Source of the DNA: an uncultured bacterium
GTDB lineage: Bacteria; Hydrothermota; Tepidihabitantia; Tepidihabitantales; Tepidihabitantaceae
Assembly: GCA_964592755.1 (NCBI GenBank)
Contig: CAZQFS010000004.1
Span: forward strand, 1 to 44,326
Direction of reading: 5' to 3'
Length of the DNA stretch: 44,326 bases
The notes below the pieces were generated by a model. It was not told the origin of the DNA. It saw only the letters and a list, made by a program, of their open reading frames with translations, and made no database searches. A program made the position numbers and the translations under genes. Positions 1,938-41,996 of the stretch are shown here, piece by piece; the stretch's first letter is position 1; each line of letters begins with the position of its first letter.

Positions 1938-3272
1938 TCACCGGCGGCCCGCGGTCGGGTCAAGGAGCATGAGCCGGTAGTCAAAGCTCGTCGCCGGATT
2001 GTGGTCGCTGCCGGCGACAAGCAGGCGGTCTCCTTCCCACGTGACCGCCACCGGCCGCGTCTCGCCCGAAACAGCGCTCGGCCCACGCCACGACCAGAGG
2101 GTGTCCCCATCATTGGAGTAGCCGAGCAGGAGCAGGTCAGGAAAGCTGCCTGCTCCGGCCGAACTTGCGCCGACCGCGACGTTGCCCGCCTCGTCGCTTG
2201 CCAGACACCACCCCCGGTCCGCAGAGTTGGCCGGGCCGTTGTAACGCCGCACCCAGAGCAGCCTGCCCGAGGAAAGATACTTCAGCGTCGCCACGTCAAA
2301 CGACGAACCGGTGCCGGTGGAGTGACCGGTCACGATGATGTTCCCTTCCCGGTCAAGGCAGGCGGCCTGGCAGATGTCCACGCTTCGGGCCGCGTCATAG
2401 CTCTGCTGCCACAACAGGCGGCCGGTCGTGTCGAAACAGGCGACAAGGTAGTCAAACGAGGTGTGGTCACCGGTGACCGAGCCGACCACGAAGCACCGTC
2501 CGGCTGAATCGAGCAGAACCTGACTCGCCAAATCGGTCGCCCGGCCGGCTCCGTCAATGGCGCGATGCCAGACCAGGGTGCCGTCGGGCCGGTACTTGAG
2601 CAGCACGATGTCCGGACCGGGCGGCGTGATAACGCCTCGACCGAGCAGGTAGATGCTGCCGCTGCGGGCGATGGCGAGCGACGCGGCATAGTCGTCGCCC
2701 TGGCCCGGGCCGTCCCAGAGCCTGGTCCACACGGTGTCGCCCTGCGGCGTATAGCGGACCAGCGCCATATCCCAGTCGCTGCGCGGCTGGAGCTCTGATG
2801 AACGGCGTCGGCTGGCACCGGCAACGACGATGGTGTTGTCCGGCAGCACACCGAGCGCGGCCGGCTTGTCGTCATAATGGAAGGCGAAGTCAGTGCGCCG
2901 AAGCCAGGCTGTGTCGCCGTTCGGCAGGTACTTGATTGTCTGGAAGTCCCAGCCCCGGCTGCGGTCGGCAATCGAACCGCCCGAAACGACCAGACAATCG
3001 CTCGCATCCAGAGTCAGACACCAGGCCCGGTCCTCGCAGTTCAGGGGCGAGCCGTACCGCCGGGACCAGAGCGTGTCGCCGTTGGGGCTGAACCTGACCG
3101 TGGCGAAGTCGAAGTCGCTTGAGTCGCCGAAACTGTACCCGGTCAGGAAGATGCTGCCGGTGCGGTCGCGCACCAGGCCGGTGCACCTGTCCTCGCCATG
3201 AGCCGGCCCGTCGTAGCCTGCGGTCCAGAGACCGACCACAAGCATGGCTGTCGGCAGAAGGATGCAGGTCAC
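1938..3272 (-). CDS. Secreted/anchored beta-propeller repeat protein (SBBP-type repeats)
   Basis: GTG start with a hydrophobic N-terminus (MTCILLPTAMLVVGLWTAG). About 7 repeats of roughly 55 aa share G(D/T)xxW.RRY/W...G (DTLWSRRYGSP, DTAWLRRTD, DTVWTRLWDGPG, GTLVWHRAIDG, GRLLWQQSYD, GRLLWVRRYNGP, DTLWSWRGP). Starts 10 nt after the histidine kinase stop. Confidence 0.75.
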   Translation of the reverse strand: MTCILLPTAMLVVGLWTAGYDGPAHGEDRCTGLVRDRTGSIFLTGYSFGDSSDFDFATVRFSPNGDTLWSRRYGSPLNCEDRAWCLTLDASDCLVVSGGSIADRSRGWDFQTIKYLPNGDTAWLRRTDFAFHYDDKPAALGVLPDNTIVVAGASRRRSSELQPRSDWDMALVRYTPQGDTVWTRLWDGPGQGDDYAASLAIARSGSIYLLGRGVITPPGPDIVLLKYRPDGTLVWHRAIDGAGRATDLASQVLLDSAGRCFVVGSVTGDHTSFDYLVACFDTTGRLLWQQSYDAARSVDICQAACLDREGNIIVTGHSTGTGSSFDVATLKYLSSGRLLWVRRYNGPANSADRGWCLASDEAGNVAVGASSAGAGSFPDLLLLGYSNDGDTLWSWRGPSAVSGETRPVAVTWEGDRLLVAGSDHNPATSFDYRLMLLDPTAGRR

Positions 3273-3281
3273 AGAACCGGC

Positions 3282-4613
3282 TCAGGCGGGCGCGTGGACC
3301 AAGGGCAGCTCCTGGCGCAGCGGGATGCGGAAGTCGAACTCGGCCCACTTGCCCGGCTCAGAGTCAGCGGTGATTTCCCCGCCGTGGCGGAGGACAATCT
3401 GACGCGAGATGTAAAGGCCCAGGCCCGACCCGGTGACCGACCTGGTCTCAGGATGCTTCAGGCGCTGGAACCGGGCAAAGAGCTTCTGTTTCTGCTCGGC
3501 GGTGAAGCCGACGCCCTCATTCCAGACCGAAAACCTGGCCCAGTAGGCCCGCTGGCGGCGGCCGTCATCCGTATAGTCAAAGAACGCCCGGCGCACCAGG
3601 CGCACGACGACCCGCCCCCCTTCGCGGCCATACTTGATGGCATTGCCGAGCAGGTTGCCGAGCACGACCCTGAGTAGCGCCGGGTCGCCTGGTGCGACCA
3701 GATACTCGGCATCGGTCTCAACCTTCATCTGGCGTGCGGCCGCGGCCGGTCGGTGCAGCTCGATGACCGGCTGGAGAACTTCCTCTACCAGGTCCACGGC
3801 CGGCGCGGGCCGGTAGTTCAGCTCGCCCGACTCAATCCGGGCCAGGTCCAGGTAGTCGCGGACCAGGTCAATCAGATAGTTGCTGTTGGCAATCATGCGC
3901 CTGACCCGCTCGGCCTGCTGCGCCGGCATGGTTCCCAGATAGCCCTCAAGCAGGGTCGTGCCCAGGGTGACGATAGATGAGAGCGGCGACTTCAGCTCGT
4001 GTGCCACAAAGTAGAGAATCTCGGCGTAGTTCCGCTTTGCCTGCTCCAGGTCATCAATGTACTTGACCTTCTCGACCGCCAGAGAAAGCGATTCGGCGAC
4101 CGCGGCAAAGGTGTCGATGTGCGCCCGCTGATAGGTTTCAGGCTGCCGCGAGCTGAAGAACAGGAAGCCAATCGGCCGGCTGCCGGCACGCAACGGGCAG
4201 GTAAGGTTCGACCGGACCCCGTCATCGAGGATGTCCCGCGTGGCTTTTGAGTCGGGGTGGGCCGCAAGATACCGCTCCAGGTCGTTGATGATGCGCGGCT
4301 CCCCGGTTCGGAGAATCGGCTCCAGCGACGAGCCTTTGAGCACGGCCCAGTAGCCCTTGTCCACGCGCTTCACCTCGACCTGGCTGCGCACCCAGCGCGA
4401 TACCACCATTCCGGTCTCTTCGTTGTAGAAAGCCACCGACAAACGGTCGAAGGGGATTATCTGGCGGACCGTGTCGTAGATGACGTCCAGCACTTCGAAC
4501 AGCGACTTGCCCGAAAGCCAGAGATGCTTCAGGTCGTCAAGCACCATCTGGACCGCGGCGCTGTGCAGCCGGTCGGTCAGTTCATCGGGATGCGCATCTG
4601 TCGGTTCGCTCAT
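3282..4613 (-). CDS. Cytoplasmic GAF-domain sensor histidine kinase
   Basis: 443 aa with no obvious TM segments. H-box FVAHELKSPLSSI, N-box LLGNAIKY, G-boxes VWNEGVGF and GSGLGLYISRQIV. The N-terminal ~170 aa are GAF-like. Confidence 0.9.
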   Translation of the reverse strand: MSEPTDAHPDELTDRLHSAAVQMVLDDLKHLWLSGKSLFEVLDVIYDTVRQIIPFDRLSVAFYNEETGMVVSRWVRSQVEVKRVDKGYWAVLKGSSLEPILRTGEPRIINDLERYLAAHPDSKATRDILDDGVRSNLTCPLRAGSRPIGFLFFSSRQPETYQRAHIDTFAAVAESLSLAVEKVKYIDDLEQAKRNYAEILYFVAHELKSPLSSIVTLGTTLLEGYLGTMPAQQAERVRRMIANSNYLIDLVRDYLDLARIESGELNYRPAPAVDLVEEVLQPVIELHRPAAAARQMKVETDAEYLVAPGDPALLRVVLGNLLGNAIKYGREGGRVVVRLVRRAFFDYTDDGRRQRAYWARFSVWNEGVGFTAEQKQKLFARFQRLKHPETRSVTGSGLGLYISRQIVLRHGGEITADSEPGKWAEFDFRIPLRQELPLVHAPA

Positions 4614-33987: not shown

Positions 33988-34758
33988 ATGGTTCGAGACC
34001 CGTTCAGCCGGTTCGCGTCCTACTATGACCGGTTCATGGTCAAGTACGTTGACTACGCGGGCTGGATTGACTACCTTGAGAAACTGTTTCGCCGCTTTGG
34101 GGTCCGGCCGAAGACCATCCTCGACGTCGCCTGCGGCACCGGCATTCCCTCGATTCTGCTGGCGCGGCGCGGCTACGGGGTCACGGGTGTGGACCGGTCC
34201 CCGGAGATGCTCGAGGTGCTGGAGAAGAAACGCGGCAGCCTGCCGATTAGCACGGTGCGGGCCGACATAAGGGACTTCCGCGCCGGTCAAGGTTTCGACG
34301 CCGCCGTCAGCCTCTACGACAGCATCAACTACCTGCTTGTCGAGGAAGACATGGTGCGCTGCTTCCGGTGCGTGCGGCAGGCCCTGCGCGAGCACGGCCT
34401 GTTCGCTTTCGACATGAACACGGTCTACGGTCTGGCCGAGTTCTGGGGCAACCGAACCACGATGCGCGAGACCGGCGGGATTCAGTCGGTCTGGCGCAAT
34501 ACCTACGACCCGGAAACCAGAGTCTCCAGCCTGCATCTCACCTTCTGGGAATCCCCTGGCCCCAATCGAAGACGCGGCTCGGCATCGTCCCCCGAACCGA
34601 GAAAGTTCGAGGAGTTGCACCAGGAGCGGGCATATCATCGCGAAGAAATCGAGCGCAGCCTGCGTGCTGCCGGATTCAGGGAGGTCTACTTCTACCAGCA
34701 CGGCAGCTTCATCGAGCCGGGACCGTATACGACCAGGATGATGGTCGTGGCGCGGTAG
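33988..34758 (+). CDS. Class I SAM-dependent methyltransferase
   Basis: I used the internal ATG at 33988 (MVRDPFSRFASYYDRFM...). Motif I ILDVACGTGIPSILLA, post-I GVDRSPEML, FDAAVSLYDSINYL. Confidence 0.85.
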   Translation: MVRDPFSRFASYYDRFMVKYVDYAGWIDYLEKLFRRFGVRPKTILDVACGTGIPSILLARRGYGVTGVDRSPEMLEVLEKKRGSLPISTVRADIRDFRAGQGFDAAVSLYDSINYLLVEEDMVRCFRCVRQALREHGLFAFDMNTVYGLAEFWGNRTTMRETGGIQSVWRNTYDPETRVSSLHLTFWESPGPNRRRGSASSPEPRKFEELHQERAYHREEIERSLRAAGFREVYFYQHGSFIEPGPYTTRMMVVAR

Positions 34759-34767
34759 GATGGTTTG

Positions 34768-34862
34768 CCCACAAAGACGAGAATAGGAAACCTTGTCCCG
34801 AAGCGCGGTTTGGACTTCTGCTCTCTGACGTCTGAACTCTTCGCTTCTGGTGTCTTTGTGAC
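34768..34862. repeat. Degenerate cargo-less copy of the AAGACAC-type inverted-repeat element
   Basis: Left arm CCCACAAAGACGAG (34768-34781). The right-arm reverse complement (34843-34862) is GTCACAAAGACACCAGAAGC. Both share the CACAAAGAC(A/G) core with the arms at 36692 and 37913. Intergenic. Confidence 0.4.
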
Positions 34863-34921
34863 TTCATGGTCAGACCGCCGGTTCCGCCCTGTCCTTTGAC
34901 TTGGGGCGCGGAGCGGCTAGA

Positions 34922-36184
34922 ATGGCCCTGATGCAGTTCATCGCCGACCTGCACATCCACTCGCGGTTCTCGCGCGCCACCAGCCGAGACATGGACATCC
35001 CGGCGCTCTCGGTCGCGGCCAAGACCAAAGGCATCAAGCTGCTTGCCACCGGCGACTTCACCCACCCTGAGTACTTCGCGTCGCTGAAGGCGAATCTGAC
35101 ACCGACCGGCAACGGCCTGTTCGTGCACGACGACACCCGCTTCATACTCAACGTGGAGCTGAACAGCATCTACACCTCGGGCGGACGGTTGCGCCGTGTC
35201 CACAACATGGTCTTTGTTCCCAGTTTCGAGACAGCGGCCCGGCTGACCGCCTGGCTCGACCGCTACGGCAAGCTGGCTTCCGACGGTCGGCCGACGCTCA
35301 GCGTCTCCAGCCGCGATATCCTGGCCAAGGTGCTGGAGCTTGACGCACGTGCTTTCGTCGTGCCGGCGCACATCTGGACCCCGTGGTTTTCTTTGTACGG
35401 CTCGAACTCCGGGTTCGACACCATCGAGGAGTGCTTCGGCGATTTGTCGCAGGAGATTTTCGCGGTCGAGACCGGGCTGTCGAGCGACCCGCCGATGAAC
35501 TGGCGGCTGTCGGCCCTTGACCGTTGCACGCTCATCTCCAACTCGGACGCACACTCACCCAACCGGCTGGGCCGGGAGGCGAATGTCTTCGACTGCGAGC
35601 TGACCTACGACGGCATCCGTCTGGCCCTCAAGAACCAGGACCGGACTCAGTTCCTCTACACCATCGAGTTCTTCCCGGAAGAAGGCAAGTACCACTTTGA
35701 CGGACATCGGGCCTGCGGTGTCAGCCTGGCCCCGAGCCAGTCGCTCCTGAACAGCAACCTCTGCCCGGTCTGCGGCCGGCAACTGACCGTCGGCGTGCTC
35801 CACCGGGTCGAAGAGCTGGCCGACCGCAAGCCAGAGGAGGTACCGCAGGACCGCATTCCGTTCAAGCACCTGGTTCCGCTCGAAGAGATTATCGGTGAGG
35901 CGCTGGGTATGGGGCGCGATACTGCGGGCGTGCGCAAGGTATACGACAGTCTGGTCAGGGCATTGGGCAGCGAGTTCGAAGTCCTGCTCAACGCGCCGAC
36001 GAGCGAGATTGCCCTGCATGGCGGTGAGCGGGTGGCGCTCGGCGTCGAACGGATGCGGGCGGGCGAGGTGCAGGCAACTGCCGGCTATGACGGTGTGTTC
36101 GGCGTCGTGCGGGTGCTGCCCGACTCCGCGGCGCGGTCCGTAGCAAGAGAGGTCGAACCCGGACAGCAGATGGGGCTTTTCTGA
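34922..36184 (+). CDS. Endonuclease Q (EndoQ) family PHP-domain protein
   Basis: FIADLHIHSRFSRATS, ATGDFTHP, VHNMVFVP, PAHIWTPWFSLY, ISNSDAHSPNRLGREAN, GKYH, Zn finger CPVCGRQLTVGVLHRVEELAD. These run collinear with archaeal EndoQ as I recall it. The start is ATG 34922 or 34931. Confidence 0.85.
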   Translation: MALMQFIADLHIHSRFSRATSRDMDIPALSVAAKTKGIKLLATGDFTHPEYFASLKANLTPTGNGLFVHDDTRFILNVELNSIYTSGGRLRRVHNMVFVPSFETAARLTAWLDRYGKLASDGRPTLSVSSRDILAKVLELDARAFVVPAHIWTPWFSLYGSNSGFDTIEECFGDLSQEIFAVETGLSSDPPMNWRLSALDRCTLISNSDAHSPNRLGREANVFDCELTYDGIRLALKNQDRTQFLYTIEFFPEEGKYHFDGHRACGVSLAPSQSLLNSNLCPVCGRQLTVGVLHRVEELADRKPEEVPQDRIPFKHLVPLEEIIGEALGMGRDTAGVRKVYDSLVRALGSEFEVLLNAPTSEIALHGGERVALGVERMRAGEVQATAGYDGVFGVVRVLPDSAARSVAREVEPGQQMGLF

Positions 36185-36192
36185 AAAGCCAG

Positions 36193-36735
36193 ATGGCGGG
36201 GACAAAGCTGTTGTGGGCGCCGTGGCGGGCCGAGTACATCAACTCCGCGCCCTGCAAGAACTCAACCGGGAAGCGGCACTGCCTGTTCTGCCGGACACTG
36301 GCGGCTCGGGACGACGAGGCCCGGCTGGTGCTGCTTCGCTCCCGGCTGGGCATGGTGATGATGAATCGGTTCCCCTATAACAACGGCCATCTGATGGCCG
36401 CGCCGGTACGGCACGTGGCTCGGTTTGAGCGGTTGACCGCGGCCGAAGGCAGGGAGCTGTTCGGCCTGATTCAACGCTGCATCACCGTGCTGCGGCGCGA
36501 GCTCCACCCTTCGGGATTCAACGTCGGTCTGAATCTGGGACGGTCTGCCGGCGCGGGTGTGGCCGGACATCTGCACGTTCACATCGTTCCCCGCTGGTTC
36601 GGTGATGTCAACTTCATGCCCCTCCTGGGCGAAACCAAGGTAATCAGCGAGCACCTGCATGAGACATACCAGCGCCTGCGGCGCGGATTCTCACCACAAA
36701 GACACAAAGGCACTAAGAGGGCTCGGGAGCAATGA
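36193..36735 (+). CDS. HIT-family nucleotide hydrolase/transferase (Ap4A-phosphorylase-like branch)
   Basis: LWAPWRAEYI, NRFPYNNGHLM, histidine triad GHLHVHIVPRW. The last ~15 codons (..SPQRHKGTKRAREQ) are encoded by the left inverted repeat of the adjacent element. Confidence 0.85.
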   Translation: MAGTKLLWAPWRAEYINSAPCKNSTGKRHCLFCRTLAARDDEARLVLLRSRLGMVMMNRFPYNNGHLMAAPVRHVARFERLTAAEGRELFGLIQRCITVLRRELHPSGFNVGLNLGRSAGAGVAGHLHVHIVPRWFGDVNFMPLLGETKVISEHLHETYQRLRRGFSPQRHKGTKRAREQ

Positions 36736-37182
36736 AGACAGCGGAATCCCCTGGCCTGATATCGCGGCCAGGACCCATACCCGTCGAAACCGAACAGACG
36801 GCCAGTGAAGTTGTAGACGCTGCATTGAAAGTGCACAGGACTCTCGGCGCAGGGCTACTGGAGTCCGTGTACGAAACGTGCCTGGCCTACGAACTGCGCC
36901 GCCGAGGCGCACGGGTGGAAACGCAGGTAGCGCTGCCGGTCGTCTACGACGGCGTGAAGCTCGACGCTGGTCTGCGACTCGACATGCTGGTCAGGGACTG
37001 CGTCGTCGTGGAGGTGAAGTCGGTCGAAAACCTGAACCCGGTCTTTCAAGCGCAGCTTCTCACGTATCTCAGGCTGACCGGGCACCGTCTGGGCCTGCTG
37101 GTGAACTTCAATGTCCCGCTCATCAGGGACGGCATCAAACGTATCGTCCTCTGAACTTATGTGTCTTTGTGTCTTGGTGGTC
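36692..37182. mobile_element. Candidate inverted-repeat-bounded cassette carrying the GxxExxY gene
   Basis: Left arm 36692-36713 is CACCACAAAGACACAAAGGCAC. The reverse complement of 37161-37182 is GACCACCAAGACACAAAGACAC. 19/22 positions are identical. The arms enclose only the GxxExxY CDS. No target-site duplication is evident. Confidence 0.4.
36732..37154 (+). CDS. GxxExxY protein (PD-(D/E)XK nuclease-fold family)
   Basis: VVDAALKVHRTLGAGLLESVYETCLAYELRRRG...LDMLVRDCVVVEVKSVENLNPVFQAQLLTYLRLTGHRLGLLVNFNV..IRDGIKRIV is a near-consensus GxxExxY family sequence. The ATG overlaps the HIT stop (ATGA). Confidence 0.9.
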   Translation: MKTAESPGLISRPGPIPVETEQTASEVVDAALKVHRTLGAGLLESVYETCLAYELRRRGARVETQVALPVVYDGVKLDAGLRLDMLVRDCVVVEVKSVENLNPVFQAQLLTYLRLTGHRLGLLVNFNVPLIRDGIKRIVL

Positions 37183-37202
37183 AGGTTGACCGGAGTCTCT
37201 TT

Positions 37203-37889
37203 GTGATTAAGGCTGTTGTCTTCGACGTGGACAACACCCTCGTGGACTTCATGAAGATGAAGGACGCGGCGGTGGCGGCCGCGATTGACGCGATGATTGA
37301 CGCCGGACTCGACCTGACGCATGAGCAGGCGCACAAGAAAATCCACGAAATCTACCGCGAGCGGGGTATCGAGTTCCAGCAGGTGTTCGACGAGTTCCTC
37401 CAGAGCGTGCTCGGCTACATCGACTACCGGATTCTGGCCAACGGGATTCTCGCCTATCGACGGGGCCGGGAAGGTGTGCTCGTGGCATACCCTCATGTCC
37501 GCATGGCCCTGCTGCGGCTGGTGCGCATGGGCCTTGCGCTGGGCGTGGTGTCGGACGCGCCCAAGCTCCAGGCCTGGATGCGCCTCTGCTCGCTCGGGGT
37601 GGACGGCTTCTTTGACGTGGTCGTCACCTTTGACGACACGGGCAGGCGCAAGCCTGCTCCCGAACCATTCCAGAAGGCGCTTGAGCTGCTCAAGGTTCAG
37701 CCCCACGAGGCGGTGATGGTCGGCGACTGGGCCGAGCGTGACATAGTCGGCGCGAAGACAATCGGCATGCACACGGTCTTCGCCCGCTACGGTGACACCT
37801 TCGGCACTCAGCACGCCGGCGCCGACTTTGAGATTGACGACATCCTTGAGCTCATCCCGGTCATCGAGCGGCTGAACGGGACGGCCTGA
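37203..37889 (+). CDS. HAD-superfamily hydrolase (subfamily IA-like)
   Basis: GTG at 37203 preferred, because the track ORF start at 37161 lies inside the right inverted repeat. Motif I VVFDVDNTL, motif II GVVSDA, motif III K...MVGDWAERD. Confidence 0.85.
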   Translation: MIKAVVFDVDNTLVDFMKMKDAAVAAAIDAMIDAGLDLTHEQAHKKIHEIYRERGIEFQQVFDEFLQSVLGYIDYRILANGILAYRRGREGVLVAYPHVRMALLRLVRMGLALGVVSDAPKLQAWMRLCSLGVDGFFDVVVTFDDTGRRKPAPEPFQKALELLKVQPHEAVMVGDWAERDIVGAKTIGMHTVFARYGDTFGTQHAGADFEIDDILELIPVIERLNGTA

Positions 37890-37912
37890 GAACAGGCCGC
37901 GGACAGAATGCT

Positions 37913-37981
37913 CACGACAAAGACACCAAGGCACAGAGGGGTTCCGGTCCGGGACCTTCGTATCTTCGTGTCTTCGTGGTA
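37913..37981. repeat. Cargo-less hairpin copy (MITE-like) of the AAGACAC-type inverted-repeat element
   Basis: Left arm 37913-37934 is CACGACAAAGACACCAAGGCAC, 20/22 identical to the arm at 36692. The reverse complement of 37960-37981 is TACCACGAAGACACGAAGATAC. A 25-nt spacer separates the arms. Lies between the HAD gene and acpS. Confidence 0.5.
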
Positions 37982-37991
37982 GCCATCTCCG

Positions 37992-38363
37992 ATGGCGGTT
38001 TTCGGCGTCGGCATTGACCTGGTGAAAGTGGAGCGCATCCGACAGGCGCTCGAGCGGTTTCCTGCCCGTTTTCGCACCCGCGTCTTCACGGCCGGTGAAG
38101 TCTCCTTCTGCGAGGCCGTTGGGCACAAGTACCTGTCGTATGCCGGCCGGTTCGCTGCCAAGGAGGCGTTCGCCAAGGCGCTCGGTACCGGCCTGCGCGG
38201 CGCGATCGGCTGGAACGAAATCGAAGTCCGGGACAACGAGCGGACGCGGCCGACGATTGCGGTATCAGGCCGGGCCGCGCAGATTCTCGGAGAGAAGAAG
38301 ACCCACCTGAGCATCACCCATCTCGACGACTACGCCGCCGCGGTCGTGGTCATCGAGGAATAG
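37992..38363 (+). CDS. acpS: Holo-[acyl-carrier-protein] synthase
   Basis: 123 aa. GVGIDLVKVERI, RFAAKEAFAKALGTG, WNEIEV, LSITH. Confidence 0.9.
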   Translation: MAVFGVGIDLVKVERIRQALERFPARFRTRVFTAGEVSFCEAVGHKYLSYAGRFAAKEAFAKALGTGLRGAIGWNEIEVRDNERTRPTIAVSGRAAQILGEKKTHLSITHLDDYAAAVVVIEE

Positions 38364-38367
38364 CCGC

Positions 38368-38467
38368 CATTCCACGTCCCACATCTCTCGTCTTACTTCC
38401 CTTCTCCTCCATCTTACTTCTCTCATCTAACTTCTATCATCTCACCTCTCTGATCCTGCTTCTCTCC
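38368..38467. repeat. Polypyrimidine (CT-rich, nearly G-free) low-complexity tract with internal direct repeats
   Basis: I count only 4 G in these 100 plus-strand nt. TCTTACTTC occurs at 38391-38399 and 38412-38420. The tract lies between acpS and the topA promoter and contrasts sharply with the GC-rich surroundings. Confidence 0.7.
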
Positions 38468-38482
38468 GCGCAGCCCCGTTAT

Positions 38483-38510
38483 TTGACACCGCGACACAAG
38501 ACACTATTCT
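38483..38510 (+). promoter_or_regulatory. Sigma70-type promoter (TTGACA-16 nt-TATTCT), 9 nt upstream of the topA ATG
   Basis: TTGACA at 38483-38488 and TATTCT at 38505-38510. The ATG is at 38520 with no Shine-Dalgarno sequence in between. Confidence 0.4.
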
Positions 38511-38519
38511 ACTCACCGC

Positions 38520-40799
38520 ATGCCGACCAAGAAGAAACCGCCACTGACCACGCGCCGCGCTGAGCCCCAGGGCCGCGCCCGCGACCTGCTGATTGTCGAG
38601 TCGCCGACCAAGGCGCGGACCATCAGCCGGCTGCTCGACGGCCGGATGAAGGTGCTTTCGTCGCGCGGCCACATCGCCGACCTGCCCAAGTCGAGACTGG
38701 GCGTGGACATCGCGCACGGGTTTGAGCCCGAGTACATTCGCATCCGGGGCAAAGCCCAGATAATCAACGAGCTGAAAGCCGAGGCGCGCGCCGCCCGCAC
38801 CGTCTACCTCGGCTGCGACCCGGACCGCGAAGGCGAGGCCATCGCCTTCTCGGTCGCGTTCGAAATCCGCGACGGCAGCCCCATCAAGCGCGTGCTCCTG
38901 TTCGAAATCACGCCCAAAGGTATCAAGGAGGCGTTTGCCGAACCGGTGGAGCTCAACATGAACAAAGTCAACTCGCACCGGGCGCGCCGCGTGCTCGACC
39001 GTTTGGTCGGCTACCTGGTCTCGCCGCTGCTCTGGAAGATAGTCCGCGGCGGGCTCTCCGCCGGCCGGGTGCAGACCGTGGCCCTGCGCCTCATCGTCGA
39101 GCGCGAGCGCGAGATTCAGGCGTTCAAGCCCGAGGAGTACTGGCTGGTCAAGGCCGTGTTCGCCACGCGCGGCGGCCAGACATTCGAGGCCGTCCTCGCC
39201 AAGGTCAGGGGCGAGGACGCGAAGCTGCGCAGCAAGGCCGAGGTTGACAAGGTCGAAGCCGGCTGCCGGACCGCGGCTTTCCGCGTCGAACTGGTCAAGC
39301 AGCGTGAGCGCCGGCGCCGGCCCCTGCCGCCGTTCGTCACCGCGACGATGCAGCAGGACGCGGTGCAGCGCCTCGGGTTCTCGGCCCAGCGGGCGATGCG
39401 CGCCGCCCAGCAGTTGTTCGAAGGCATCGAACTGGGCAGAGAAACGGCCGGCCTCATCACCTACCCGCGCACCGATTCGTTCCGCGTCGCCGATGCCTTT
39501 GTCGCCGACACCCGGGACTTTGTCGCCCGCCACTACGGCCCTGAGTTCCTGCCCGAGAAGCCGCGGCACTACCCGGACCGCAAAGGCACCCAGGGCGCGC
39601 ACGAGGCAATCCGTCCGACGCGCATCGACCGCACGCCCGATTCGGTCAAGGCCTTTCTCACCCCGGACCAGTTCCGGCTCTACGACCTCATCTACCGCCG
39701 GTTCATGGCCAGTCAGATGGCCGACGCGGTGTACTCCCTGACCGAGGTTTCGGTCGCGGGCGGCGACTACCTGTTCAAGACCGACGCGGTGCGCTGCGCG
39801 TTTGCCGGGTTCGAGCGTGTGTACGGCGACCCGGACAAGGAGCACTCCCTGCCCGAACTCGCGCCCGGCGAGCCGCTGGCCATGAACCAGTTCAACCCGG
39901 AACAGAAGTTCACCCAGCCCCCGGCCCGATTCAGTGAGGCGACGCTCATCAAGCGCCTGGAAACCAACGGCATCGGCCGGCCCTCGACCTACGCCACCAT
40001 CGTCGGCACGCTCTTCGACCGCAAATACGCCGAGCGCAAGGAGGGCCGGCTGCACCCGACCGAGCTCGGCATGGTCGTCAACGACGTGCTCATTCCCCGC
40101 TTTGCCAACGTGTTTGAGGTCGGGTTCACCCGCGAGATGGAAAAGGAACTCGACCTTGTCGAAGAAGGCAGCGAACCCTGGCAGGAAGTCGTCGGCCGAT
40201 TCTACCGTCCGTTCAAGGAAGACCTGGACCGGGTCGCCGACGGTGCGGCCGGCATCCGCGAGGACATCCATCAGGAACTGAACGAAAAGTGCCCCGAGTG
40301 CGGTGCGAACCTCGTCGAGCGGTGGGGCCGGTTCGGCAAGTTCATCGCCTGCGGCAAGTACCCCGAGTGCAAGTACATCAAAAAGACCCCGCCGAAGCTC
40401 CTGGAAGAAAAGTGCCCGGACTGCGGCCGGCAACTGGCCGAACGCCGCGGCCGGTTCGGGCCCTTCAAAGCCTGCTCCGGCTACCCGGAGTGCAAATACA
40501 TCAAACGCGAGGAGACGAAAGACCTAAAAGCCGGTGACCCGTGCCCGCAGTGCGGCAAACCGCTCGCCGACAAGCAGGGCCGGATGGGCGCGTTTGTCGG
40601 CTGCTCCGGCTACCCGGAATGCCGGTTCCTCGTGCGCTCCCGGCGGCCCGAGCCCAAGCTCCTGGACGAAAAGTGCCCGCAGTGCGGCAAACCGATGGTC
40701 GAGCGTCAGGGTCGGTTCGGGCCCTTCAAAGCCTGCTCCGGCTACCCCGGCTGCAAGTACATCAAGAAAGAACCGCGCAAGCCGGCCTCAAAGTCATGA
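38520..40799 (+). CDS. topA: DNA topoisomerase I with five C-terminal zinc-ribbon modules
   Basis: TOPRIM LLIVESPTKARTI...DPDREGEAI. Active-site region GLITYPRTDS. C-terminal repeats of CPxCGxxL....GRFGxFxACxGYPxCKY. Confidence 0.95.
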   Translation: MPTKKKPPLTTRRAEPQGRARDLLIVESPTKARTISRLLDGRMKVLSSRGHIADLPKSRLGVDIAHGFEPEYIRIRGKAQIINELKAEARAARTVYLGCDPDREGEAIAFSVAFEIRDGSPIKRVLLFEITPKGIKEAFAEPVELNMNKVNSHRARRVLDRLVGYLVSPLLWKIVRGGLSAGRVQTVALRLIVEREREIQAFKPEEYWLVKAVFATRGGQTFEAVLAKVRGEDAKLRSKAEVDKVEAGCRTAAFRVELVKQRERRRRPLPPFVTATMQQDAVQRLGFSAQRAMRAAQQLFEGIELGRETAGLITYPRTDSFRVADAFVADTRDFVARHYGPEFLPEKPRHYPDRKGTQGAHEAIRPTRIDRTPDSVKAFLTPDQFRLYDLIYRRFMASQMADAVYSLTEVSVAGGDYLFKTDAVRCAFAGFERVYGDPDKEHSLPELAPGEPLAMNQFNPEQKFTQPPARFSEATLIKRLETNGIGRPSTYATIVGTLFDRKYAERKEGRLHPTELGMVVNDVLIPRFANVFEVGFTREMEKELDLVEEGSEPWQEVVGRFYRPFKEDLDRVADGAAGIREDIHQELNEKCPECGANLVERWGRFGKFIACGKYPECKYIKKTPPKLLEEKCPDCGRQLAERRGRFGPFKACSGYPECKYIKREETKDLKAGDPCPQCGKPLADKQGRMGAFVGCSGYPECRFLVRSRRPEPKLLDEKCPQCGKPMVERQGRFGPFKACSGYPGCKYIKKEPRKPASKS

Positions 40800-41221: not shown

Positions 41222-41463
41222 CCCGGCTCACCTCGACCGCGCCACCCCAGTGTTCGCGCCGGCCGCCGGCTGGAATCCGTCAGGCGCCAGGCAGCAGGAA
41301 CCTGGCGGCATGGCCTACTGCCTGCCGCCGCCCACTTTCCTGAGAGCAACCGAACCATCCCTCGCCTGCCGGCAAAACGGCGCGGCGAAAGCCGGGGACA
41401 ACGCCATGAGCAATGCCGCAACGAGACGCGGCCCAAGAACCTGCTCGGCAAGACAGGCAAGGG

Positions 41464-41571
41464 CTCAAGTGACTTCTCAGCCAATGGCTCAGACAACTGC
41501 TCAAACCGTTGTTCGAAGCATCACTCAAGAAACCACTCGCGGTATTGCTCGACGCAACGCCCGAAGTTAGG
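41464..41571. repeat. Degenerate 12-nt periodic repeat (about 9 units, CTCARnnnnnnn) in a gene-free region
   Basis: The units begin at 41464, 41476, 41488, 41500, 41512, 41524, 41536, 41548 and 41560. In that order they read CTCAAG, CTCAGC, CTCAGA, CTCAAA, TTCGAA, CTCAAG, CTCGCG, CTCGAC and CCCGAA. Confidence 0.5.
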
Positions 41572-41996
41572 CCCGCGCCAAAGCCCGGCGCAAGACCCGG
41601 CTGACAACCCGACCAAAAACGTGCCCCAAAACCGTCCCGGGAACGGCCTCCCGGCAGTACCCCCCTCGGGTAACTGAAGAAGAAGCGGCAAGTCCGGCCG
41701 CCAGCACCGTATAACACAGTGAGCGGGCACTGCGTTGGGGACATAACCCGAGTCGTCCGACGATTCGGGATTGTGTCCCCTGTCTGGAGCCACCTGCGCC
41801 TGAAGGCGCAGCCAGCGAAGGAGTTGGACATGTCAGAAGTCAGAGACCACAATGCAGAGGTCAGACTGCCAGGACGACAATCCGCGGTCCGCAAGCGCCA
41901 ATCCGAGCCCAGATAATCACAGCATAGCAGTCAGGACCACACCAATCGCCGGGCGCTGAGCCGGTCTGCGCCGGCATCGGCAACTGCCGGCCCGGT

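Follow-up and report, generated by a model that had tools for sequence, protein, structure and literature searches.

In the 44,326-nucleotide stretch of DNA that we analyzed (the window; contig CAZQFS010000004.1 of assembly GCA_964592755.1, from an uncultured bacterium), a gene for a GxxExxY protein, a predicted nuclease of the PD-(D/E)XK type, lies between a HIT-family gene and a HAD hydrolase gene and is framed by inverted repeats, which we call arms. We conclude that this segment, 36690 to 37184, is on balance probably an inserted minigene cassette of a widespread class, with the anatomy of the intervening sequences (IVSs) of 23S rRNA, a nuclease as cargo and a protein-coding operon as its site. 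The design of arms plus gene recurs across phyla. A literature search found no published description of arms around GxxExxY genes. Our reading is that the cassette is a selfish, IVS-like element that moves rarely and is cotranscribed with its host operon.

The core left arm (CACCACAAAGACACAAAGGCAC, 36692 to 36713) differs from the reverse complement of 37161 to 37182 at 3 of 22 positions, which is the 19/22 match reported in a preliminary description of this DNA, and no match of this kind was expected by chance, as judged from 100 dinucleotide-preserving shuffles. When extended, the arms comprise 24 nt each, are 88% complementary, are spaced 447 nt apart, and form 21 Watson-Crick pairs and 1 G-U pair with 2 mismatches. 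Both are built from short tandem units, with a TRF period of 8 in each (36695 to 36718 and 37160 to 37179). A single open reading frame (ORF) lies between them, an intact GxxExxY gene, so that the earlier statement that the arms enclose exactly one gene of this family was correct. The cassette region was 100% identical across three independent metagenome contigs and is therefore no assembly artifact. No Rfam match was obtained within 34600 to 38600, even at an E value of ≤1.

The left arm is embedded in the 3' end of the HIT gene, as had been described. In a profile search the HIT family match stopped at residue 162 of 180, and the codons from about 166 on (SPQRHKGTKRAREQ) are translated from the arm; the HIT stop codon TGA and the ATG of the cargo overlap as ATGA. 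This is a recurrent arrangement, since about one-third of 120 HIT orthologues terminate in translated arms (SPQRHKDTKRK, TTKTQRH, and similar tails). On the other side, the HAD start of the ORF track, 37161, falls within the right arm, again in agreement with the preliminary description. Alignment with the HAD starts of the insert-free relatives L323, L347, and L348 indicates that the true start is most likely the GTG at 37203, which would therefore make the right arm intergenic. The public gene call for the cargo (L120, 10001 to 10288) has merely 95 amino acids and begins at an internal GTG, and most homologues of the cargo have 131 amino acids and begin about 12 residues past the ATG of the window; the true start of the cargo is therefore uncertain.

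Table 1. Coordinates of the cassette, its neighbors, and related elements
Feature	Sequence	Position	Strand	Description
Whole cassette	Window	36690–37184	+	495 bp: left arm, short leader, GxxExxY ORF, right arm
Left arm	Window	36690–36713	+	CTCACCACAAAGACACAAAGGCAC, tandem octamers CACNAAGN; also codes for the final ~15 codons of HIT
Right arm	Window	37161–37184	+	GTGTCTTTGTGTCTTGGTGGTCAG, complement array; begins 6 nt past the cargo stop codon
GxxExxY gene (cargo)	Window	36732–37154	+	140 amino acids, PD-(D/E)XK; ATG overlaps HIT stop
Host HIT-family gene	Window	36193–36735	+	ATP adenylyltransferase-like; native part to about codon 165, tail element-encoded
Host HAD hydrolase gene (TIGR02253)	Window	37203–37889	+	Likely GTG start, downstream of the right arm
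Gene-less hairpin, same arm family	Window	37911–37982		Arms 37911–37934 and 37960–37982; GC-rich apex GGTTCCGGTCCGGGACC; HAD-acpS spacer
Degenerate third copy	Window	34768–34873		Decayed left arm 34768–34787, good right arm 34850–34873
IVP cassette (PF05635, four-helix bundle)	L324	2323–2775		Inverted heptamer arrays
IVP cassette	L326	3820–4262		Inverted heptamer arrays
IVP cassette	L349	4229–4624		Assigned from gene calls alone
IVP cassette	L350	620–1090		Inverted heptamer arrays

The cargo is a near-consensus member of its family. It matched TIGR04256 with 147.1 bits (cutoff, 35; E value, 2.6e-43) and PF13366 (PDDEXK_3) with 142 bits (cutoff, 22; E value, 1.4e-41). The residues G41-L-L-E44-S-V-Y47, D84, E94, and K96 were invariant across 26 relatives, in which 34 columns were invariant in total. 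Judged from this alignment, the catalytic D...E-x-K residues are intact and the protein is a predicted nuclease. The AlphaFold2 model (pLDDT, 90.8) has a predicted restriction-endonuclease-like α/β fold, and its best fold matches in the PDB were Cas4 SSO0001 and lambda-exonuclease-like enzymes, with a probability of 1.0 and a TM score of only about 0.45, so that just a common core is shared with these structures; weak further matches were to tRNA splicing endonucleases. A sequence search of the PDB with the family profile gave nothing meaningful, with no solved structure matched by sequence, and a literature search found no biochemical report on the GxxExxY family. PADLOC gave a marginal Cas4 match alone (E value, 0.0078) and PHROGs gave no match; thus, these searches do not place the cargo in a defense system. 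The family is large, with more than 7,900 relatives at an E value of ≤1e-20.

The best named matches of both HIT and the cargo belonged to candidate division WOR-3, and the relatives have a common gene order: methyltransferase, MJ0043_C-like, HIT, HAD, acpS, and topA. In the three closest relatives (L347, L323, and L348, with flank proteins 87, 87, and 81% identical to those of the window), HIT overlaps or abuts HAD, and there are neither arms nor a gene between them. In a second clade, the HIT-HAD junctions of L324 and L325 (flank protein identity, 72 to 76%) and of L349 contain the cassette just as that of the window does, while L326 and L327 (75%) carry a gene-less hairpin made of different units, TCGAARN. 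Thus, the comparison with orthologous HIT-HAD junctions that the preliminary description had suggested did reveal empty as well as filled alleles at one conserved site, and by sequence comparison the cassette is an insertion or deletion relative to these junctions. L325 and L326 have flanks that are 93% identical and differ in the contents of the junction (the cassette versus the different hairpin); gain, loss, or replacement at the junction has therefore taken place within the time that species take to diverge. The cargo of the window was 71 to 72% identical to those of L324 and L325, a value similar to that of the neighboring genes, and its nearest database relatives were all about 70 to 75% identical. 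Several of these appear to lie beside a HIT orthologue. This divergence pattern fits old vertical inheritance combined with losses; alternatively, the lineage of the window may have gained the cassette independently. The empty junction of L347 contains a perfect 11-bp mini-hairpin (GGGGACACGAT/ATCGTGTCCCC, 2985 to 3015) within the HIT tail, which may be the scar of a collapsed element.

To judge how general the design is, we used two samples. The first consisted of 80 metagenome loci chosen by the protein alone (50 to 72% identity). Arms of the CACNAAG type were present on both sides of the gene in 28 of the 80 loci and on one side in 15, with a chance expectation of about 0.01 per side by our own calculation. 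An inverted repeat far above the level in shuffled sequences flanked 42 of 76 testable GxxExxY genes. With a more general unit, C[AG]C-N-[AG][AC]G with a period of 8 to 9, an array was found within about 170 nt of 70 of 74 distinct GxxExxY genes (counted over every fetched locus, the majority chosen by the protein), usually laid out as inverted arms around the gene; all GxxExxY arms fit this one formula. The same design was found in cultured isolates: Sphingomonas parapaucimobilis (fabD-[cassette]-fabG-acpP), Bacteroides finegoldii (radA-[cassette]), and Bernardetia. Additionally, false N-terminal extensions of homologues (MNHKDTK..., ...HEDTRTPR...) proved to be translated arms. The expectation that other GxxExxY genes would carry such arms was thus borne out. 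No rRNA signature adjoined a GxxExxY gene at any fetched locus, and a 16S match in L170 was a false alarm.

The second sample was selected by the arms. A 23-nt arm pattern, for which about 2 chance matches would be expected in 596 Gb by our own calculation, matched at least 120 stretches in species-representative genomes. The matches listed came from genomes labeled in their records as Chloroflexota, Planctomycetota, Acidobacteriota, Bacteroidota, Verrucomicrobiota, Desulfobacterota, Ignavibacteria, Cyanobacteriota, Nitrospirae, Actinomycetota, Armatimonadota, and Proteobacteria. For this distribution we did not count a Paenibacillus match (L184), which is a plain tandem array with no hairpin, or a Methanocellaceae match (L167), in which no right arm matched the left one over the stretch examined. 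Among the matches listed, 172 of the 186 inverted arm pairs at these arm-selected loci were small hairpins with an inner part of <200 nt, and 4 pairs enclosed a GxxExxY ORF (1 of them frameshifted; inner length, 402 to 454 nt; 2 in Ignavibacteria). A shorter arm pattern matched 119 IMG/VR stretches, and none of the 119 encoded a GxxExxY protein. In three phage-like IMG/VR contigs (L078, 2256 to 4336; L043, 243 to 1337; and L026), the same hairpins occur in successive spacers with no GxxExxY gene, among genes that by appearance look like phage structural genes. At some loci up to three concentric inverted repeats of differing unit types surround one core (L133, 6027 to 6666; L126, 4646 to 4965; L209, 3392 to 3727; L248, 60 to 622).

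The arms themselves show signs of constraint. Among four orthologous cassettes, DNA identity was 74 to 96% in the arms, 65 to 82% in the ORF, and 65 to 84% in the flanking coding sequence, and the left arm of the window was 96% identical to that of L324, where flanking coding DNA was about 75% identical. In this alignment, the arms are at least as conserved as the ORF. L325 has a C on both arms where the others have an A (position 4), which is a compensatory change, and position 4 also paired above chance across long-loop elements (0.48 versus 0.35). The terminal stem was retained in both the minimum free energy and the centroid structures of the predicted RNA fold. GxxExxY proteins with a common arm type were more alike than others (54.8% versus 51.6%; permutation P < 0.0002), and arm type also tracked the type of cargo within contigs, with octamers accompanying GxxExxY genes and heptamers accompanying IVP genes.

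The IVP cassettes link the element to its closest known relative, which, by analogy of anatomy, appears to be the 23S rRNA IVS. Three WOR-3 relatives have an IVP cassette in the HAD-acpS spacer, where the window has a gene-less hairpin, one spacer away from the cassette junction. The IVP arms, which we checked in L324, L326, and L350, consist of CAGAAGN units in L324, GATGTNA units in L326, and a TGA-ending heptamer in L350. In viral contigs, a single-sequence scan for IVP gave no match and a profile scan gave one locus. The IVS of Coxiella has been described as a 428-nt "selfish element" with a 28-bp terminal stem, tandem GACAGAT heptamers of variable copy number, and an S23p ORF of about 14 kDa; RNase III excises it, and where it came from is unknown (PMC4990558). 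Within cas operons, too, IVP genes have been noted but left unexplained, such as one between cmr3 and cmr2 (PMC3936711). The cassette resembles the IVSs of Coxiella and Leptospira in size (495 nt versus 428 nt in Coxiella), in terminal inverted repeats with a stem of about 24 to 28 bp, in arms of tandem 7- to 8-nt units with variable copy number, in a single loop ORF of about 130 amino acids, and in the occurrence of both ORF-less and ORF-bearing versions. For IVSs, as for the cassette, a selfish and mobile nature has been hypothesized, and no mechanism is known (PMC4990558). It differs from them in its cargo, a PF13366 PD-(D/E)XK nuclease rather than a PF05635 four-helix bundle; in its location, an mRNA operon between HIT and HAD rather than rRNA; and in its arm unit, an octamer or nonamer rather than a heptamer.

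We propose a mechanism for the cassette in which the steps differ in strength. No promoter-like sites were found inside it; such sites are present at 34896 and 38483, and the cargo had the same orientation as the gene upstream of it in each of the 7 independent contexts with gene calls. The cassette would quite likely lack a promoter and depend for its transcription on that of the operon, near 34896, and the ATGA overlap would couple its translation to that of HIT. With about an even chance, to go by the analogy with IVSs, the arms in the transcript would close into a stem of 24 to 40 bp and RNase III would cut it, so that the cargo RNA would be freed and the HIT and HAD-acpS messages split; the terminal stem retained in the predicted fold is long enough for RNase III. 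One DNA run, from which we inspected assembler contigs, contained the cassette and other arm-bearing contigs and showed no excision joint. At the DNA level, we suggest tentatively, as a possibility with less than even prospects, that rare movement proceeds with no DDE transposase, by a nuclease break at or near an arm array or hairpin and repair copied from a filled element. Such a break-and-copy route would amount to a homing-like conversion in which the arms provide the homology, and we favor it over transposition because no duplication is left and because hairpin centers are favored. We infer a candidate role for the nuclease as the mover of the unit.

Several observations weigh against the reading of the cassette as an IVS-like mobile unit. 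The junction of the closest relatives is wholly naive, with no hairpin; therefore, homing into a hairpin is not the sole route of entry, and either the cassette can enter without a preexisting hairpin or entry takes two steps, one for the hairpin and one for the gene. The cargo has persisted for a long time at a single site, where purifying selection has acted on it, and this is unusual in a homing gene that is purely selfish. Gene-less pairs outnumbered filled ones by more than 10:1 at the arm-selected loci among the matches listed, and gene-less hairpins occurred on contigs with no GxxExxY gene, so the nuclease may not matter for their spread. The gene was found between two complete hairpins, and not inside one, in 8 of 74 cases. 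Identical cargo in two contexts was not found: the proteins P0008 and P0046, each on 24 contigs, always had one context. Any mobility is therefore slow, and the idea of recent transposition was dropped on the same grounds. In short-loop hairpins, the variable unit positions were complementary at or below chance (position 8, 0.29 versus 0.42 expected), which counts against simple selection for an RNA stem. Arm mismatches in all elements showed no G-U strand bias (41 versus 34; P = 0.49), and we dropped the idea that the arms are kept purely as a sense-strand RNA stem because of this lack of asymmetry. Finally, no RNA runs with the sequence of the locus were found. Perfect palindromes with short spacers are unstable in DNA, and we infer two pressures on the arms: the motif is kept, together with the stem in gene-bearing elements, and perfect DNA palindromes with short spacers are disfavored. 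The earlier proposal of an inserted cassette bounded by inverted repeats holds up, with amendments: the insertion is backed by the insert-free junctions of L347, L323, and L348, and neither a target-site duplication nor an identical protein in two contexts was found. The suggestion that such units explain the spread of GxxExxY genes is likewise favored by the arms at other members of the family, with the amendment that the arms are not exclusive to them and that gene-less hairpins are far more numerous.

The excess of gene-less hairpins among the matches listed is one point in favor of a different explanation, which we consider unlikely: the arms would be preexisting intergenic palindromic repeats of the host that spread by themselves, resembling repetitive extragenic palindromic (REP) sequences or miniature inverted-repeat transposable elements (MITEs), and the gene would land or be retained in the center of a hairpin, so that the arms are a target and not the ends of an element. 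The hairpins in phage-like contigs, the nesting of hairpins in hairpins, and the 8 of 74 genes that lie outside hairpins are all expected from this explanation. Moreover, the gene-less hairpins of WOR-3 have their own conserved apex and are no simple deletion products; for the same reason, we ruled out that gene-less hairpins are fresh deletion derivatives of a filled element. However, host repeats do not explain why the nearest empty junctions have no hairpin at all, why the arm type follows the cargo within one contig and correlates with protein similarity, and why a unit of arms plus gene with an inner part of 400 to 450 nt recurs from Ignavibacteria to WOR-3.

The persistence of the cassette at one junction, with a cargo that has diverged as much as its housekeeping neighbors, would also be expected if it were immobile now. 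In this explanation, the cargo is a domesticated nuclease that benefits the host, the arms serve RNA processing or translational control, and the patchy distribution results from an ancient gain followed by repeated loss. The 34 invariant columns that include the catalytic triad, the constant context of identical proteins, the lack of a target-site duplication, and the arms that are more conserved than the ORF agree with this. We nevertheless regard it as improbable, since such cassettes interrupt unrelated conserved operons (fabD-fabG, radA, ade, and, for IVP, cas operons), the family has more than 7,900 relatives at the threshold given above, junction contents differ despite flanks that are 93% identical, and no defense or other system context was found. 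A tandem duplication of 642 bp in L342, from a Hydrogenedentes metagenome-assembled genome (830 to 2370), also argues against immobility; each of its two near-identical GxxExxY genes has complete hairpins on its flanks and hence lies outside them.

A classical nonautonomous transposon, that is, a MITE with cargo whose terminal inverted repeats are recognized by a DDE transposase acting in trans, is very improbable. The elements do have terminal inverted repeats, their outer terminus is conserved (TTT[AC][AG]C|CAC...GTG|G[TC]NAAA), and each end has several tandem motif copies, as in the ends of Tn7 and Mu or in foldback elements, and one GxxExxY locus adjoins a DDE_Tnp_1 gene. However, the target-site duplications that the preliminary description had suggested looking for were not found: in 151 elements there was no duplication of 2 to 5 nt beyond the effect of the terminal consensus, direct repeats of 3 to 5 nt were not enriched beyond that consensus, and there was none at the window boundaries (36689/37185). 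Furthermore, no transposase is consistently nearby and none is present in the operon of the window, near-identical arms in more than 12 phyla among the matches listed are hard to square with one transposase family, and no multicopy identical elements were seen. That the inverted repeat arose by chance or through faulty assembly has nothing in its favor beyond the modest length of 22 to 24 nt and can practically be dismissed, given the lack of any match in shuffled sequences, the three identical independent assemblies, and the same arms at homologous genes elsewhere.

Several other known systems share some of the features of the cassette. REP, REPIN, and BIME sequences and MITEs such as Correia/NEMIS and ERIC are, like the elements described here, short, imperfect, multicopy palindromes in spacers and gene 3' ends that are cotranscribed, and the gene-less hairpins resemble this class. 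Some such elements (Correia) are RNase III substrates. REPs, however, are species specific and tied to RAYT (Y1) transposases, whereas the same 23-mer was found here in more than 12 phyla among the matches listed, in nonpalindromic arms that consist of tandem arrays and lack GTAG; MITEs are accompanied by target-site duplications and a parent insertion sequence, whereas these elements have no duplication, arms of tandem units, and a subset that carries a gene. Free-standing homing endonuclease genes include PD-(D/E)XK types such as I-Ssp6803I. They are likewise small nuclease genes that are present or absent at conserved intergenic sites, leave no target-site duplication, and persist by gene conversion, but they have no inverted-repeat frame, usually decay once fixed, and have one specific target sequence; the frame of the cassette is a repeat array found at many sites, and cleavage by its cargo is only predicted. 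The foldback transposons of eukaryotes (FB of Drosophila, Tetris) also have long inverted repeats of tandem short subrepeats, and most of their copies consist of two arms and a short loop with a minority carrying coding sequence. These are far longer, have target-site duplications, and are thought to depend on a transposase, and we imply no relationship with them. Integron cassettes share with the present element a single small promoter-less ORF, an imperfect palindromic site, and an upstream promoter. Their attC site is one-sided, with R''/R' cores (GTTRRRY), and they are arrayed beside an integrase, none of which applies here; the cassette has inverted arms on both sides, no GTTRRRY core, and housekeeping neighbors.

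The preliminary description had missed both the likeness to IVSs and two further arm-bearing copies in the window. The gene-less hairpin in the HAD-acpS spacer is 72 nt long, with CACNAAG arms and a predicted folding energy of −40.3 kcal/mol (z score, −2.57); in relatives this spacer is either empty or occupied by an IVP cassette. L325 has a hairpin with this type of apex in another spacer (about 1535 to 1605). The degenerate third copy is located just upstream of the promoter-like site of the operon at 34896 to 34923, and in relatives its spacer has intact arms, solo arms, or no arms, with an intact hairpin in L325. In the acpS-topA spacer (about 38380 to 38452), a solo pyrimidine-rich array with the consensus CATCTTACTTCTCT was found without a partner arm. 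TRF gave it a period of 14, which we read as two half-units of about 7 nt, and the array is similar to the right arm (4215 to 4262) of the L326 IVP cassette. Outside this operon, the window diverges abruptly at 41424 from two otherwise identical contigs (L120, 14558 to 14768; L121, 9976 to 10186), inside a repetitive minus-strand ORF (41280 to 41894); the region from 41424 is a strain-variable or misassembled repeat.

The arms have practical consequences for annotation. They corrupt gene calls by producing false C-terminal tails in upstream proteins (...SPQRHKDTKRK), false N termini in the cargo (MNHKDTK...), and false starts in downstream genes, and they are likely break points in metagenome assembly. 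A defined frame also makes the arm array or the hairpin a candidate substrate of the nuclease and predicts RNase III cuts within operons, for example, fabD-fabG; two carriers, Bacteroides finegoldii and Sphingomonas parapaucimobilis, are culturable. GxxExxY and IVP proteins are among the most common small proteins of unknown function in Bacteroidota, Planctomycetota, Acidobacteriota, Chloroflexota, and candidate phyla, and, to our knowledge, the origin of rRNA IVSs has been an open question since about 1990. We therefore raise, as a speculative and rather unlikely generalization, the idea that GxxExxY and S23p/IVP proteins are cargoes of one large prokaryotic "foldback-like" class. Such a class would comprise genes enclosed by inverted arrays of short tandem motifs and far more numerous hairpins with no gene, and each cargo would recognize its own array and drive copying into other arrays. 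If true, this would account for the large paralogous families of both proteins, for the origin of rRNA IVSs, and for the hairpins that occur across phyla and in IMG/VR. Overall, a large class of elements, for which we found no description in the literature, may lie behind this one cassette.

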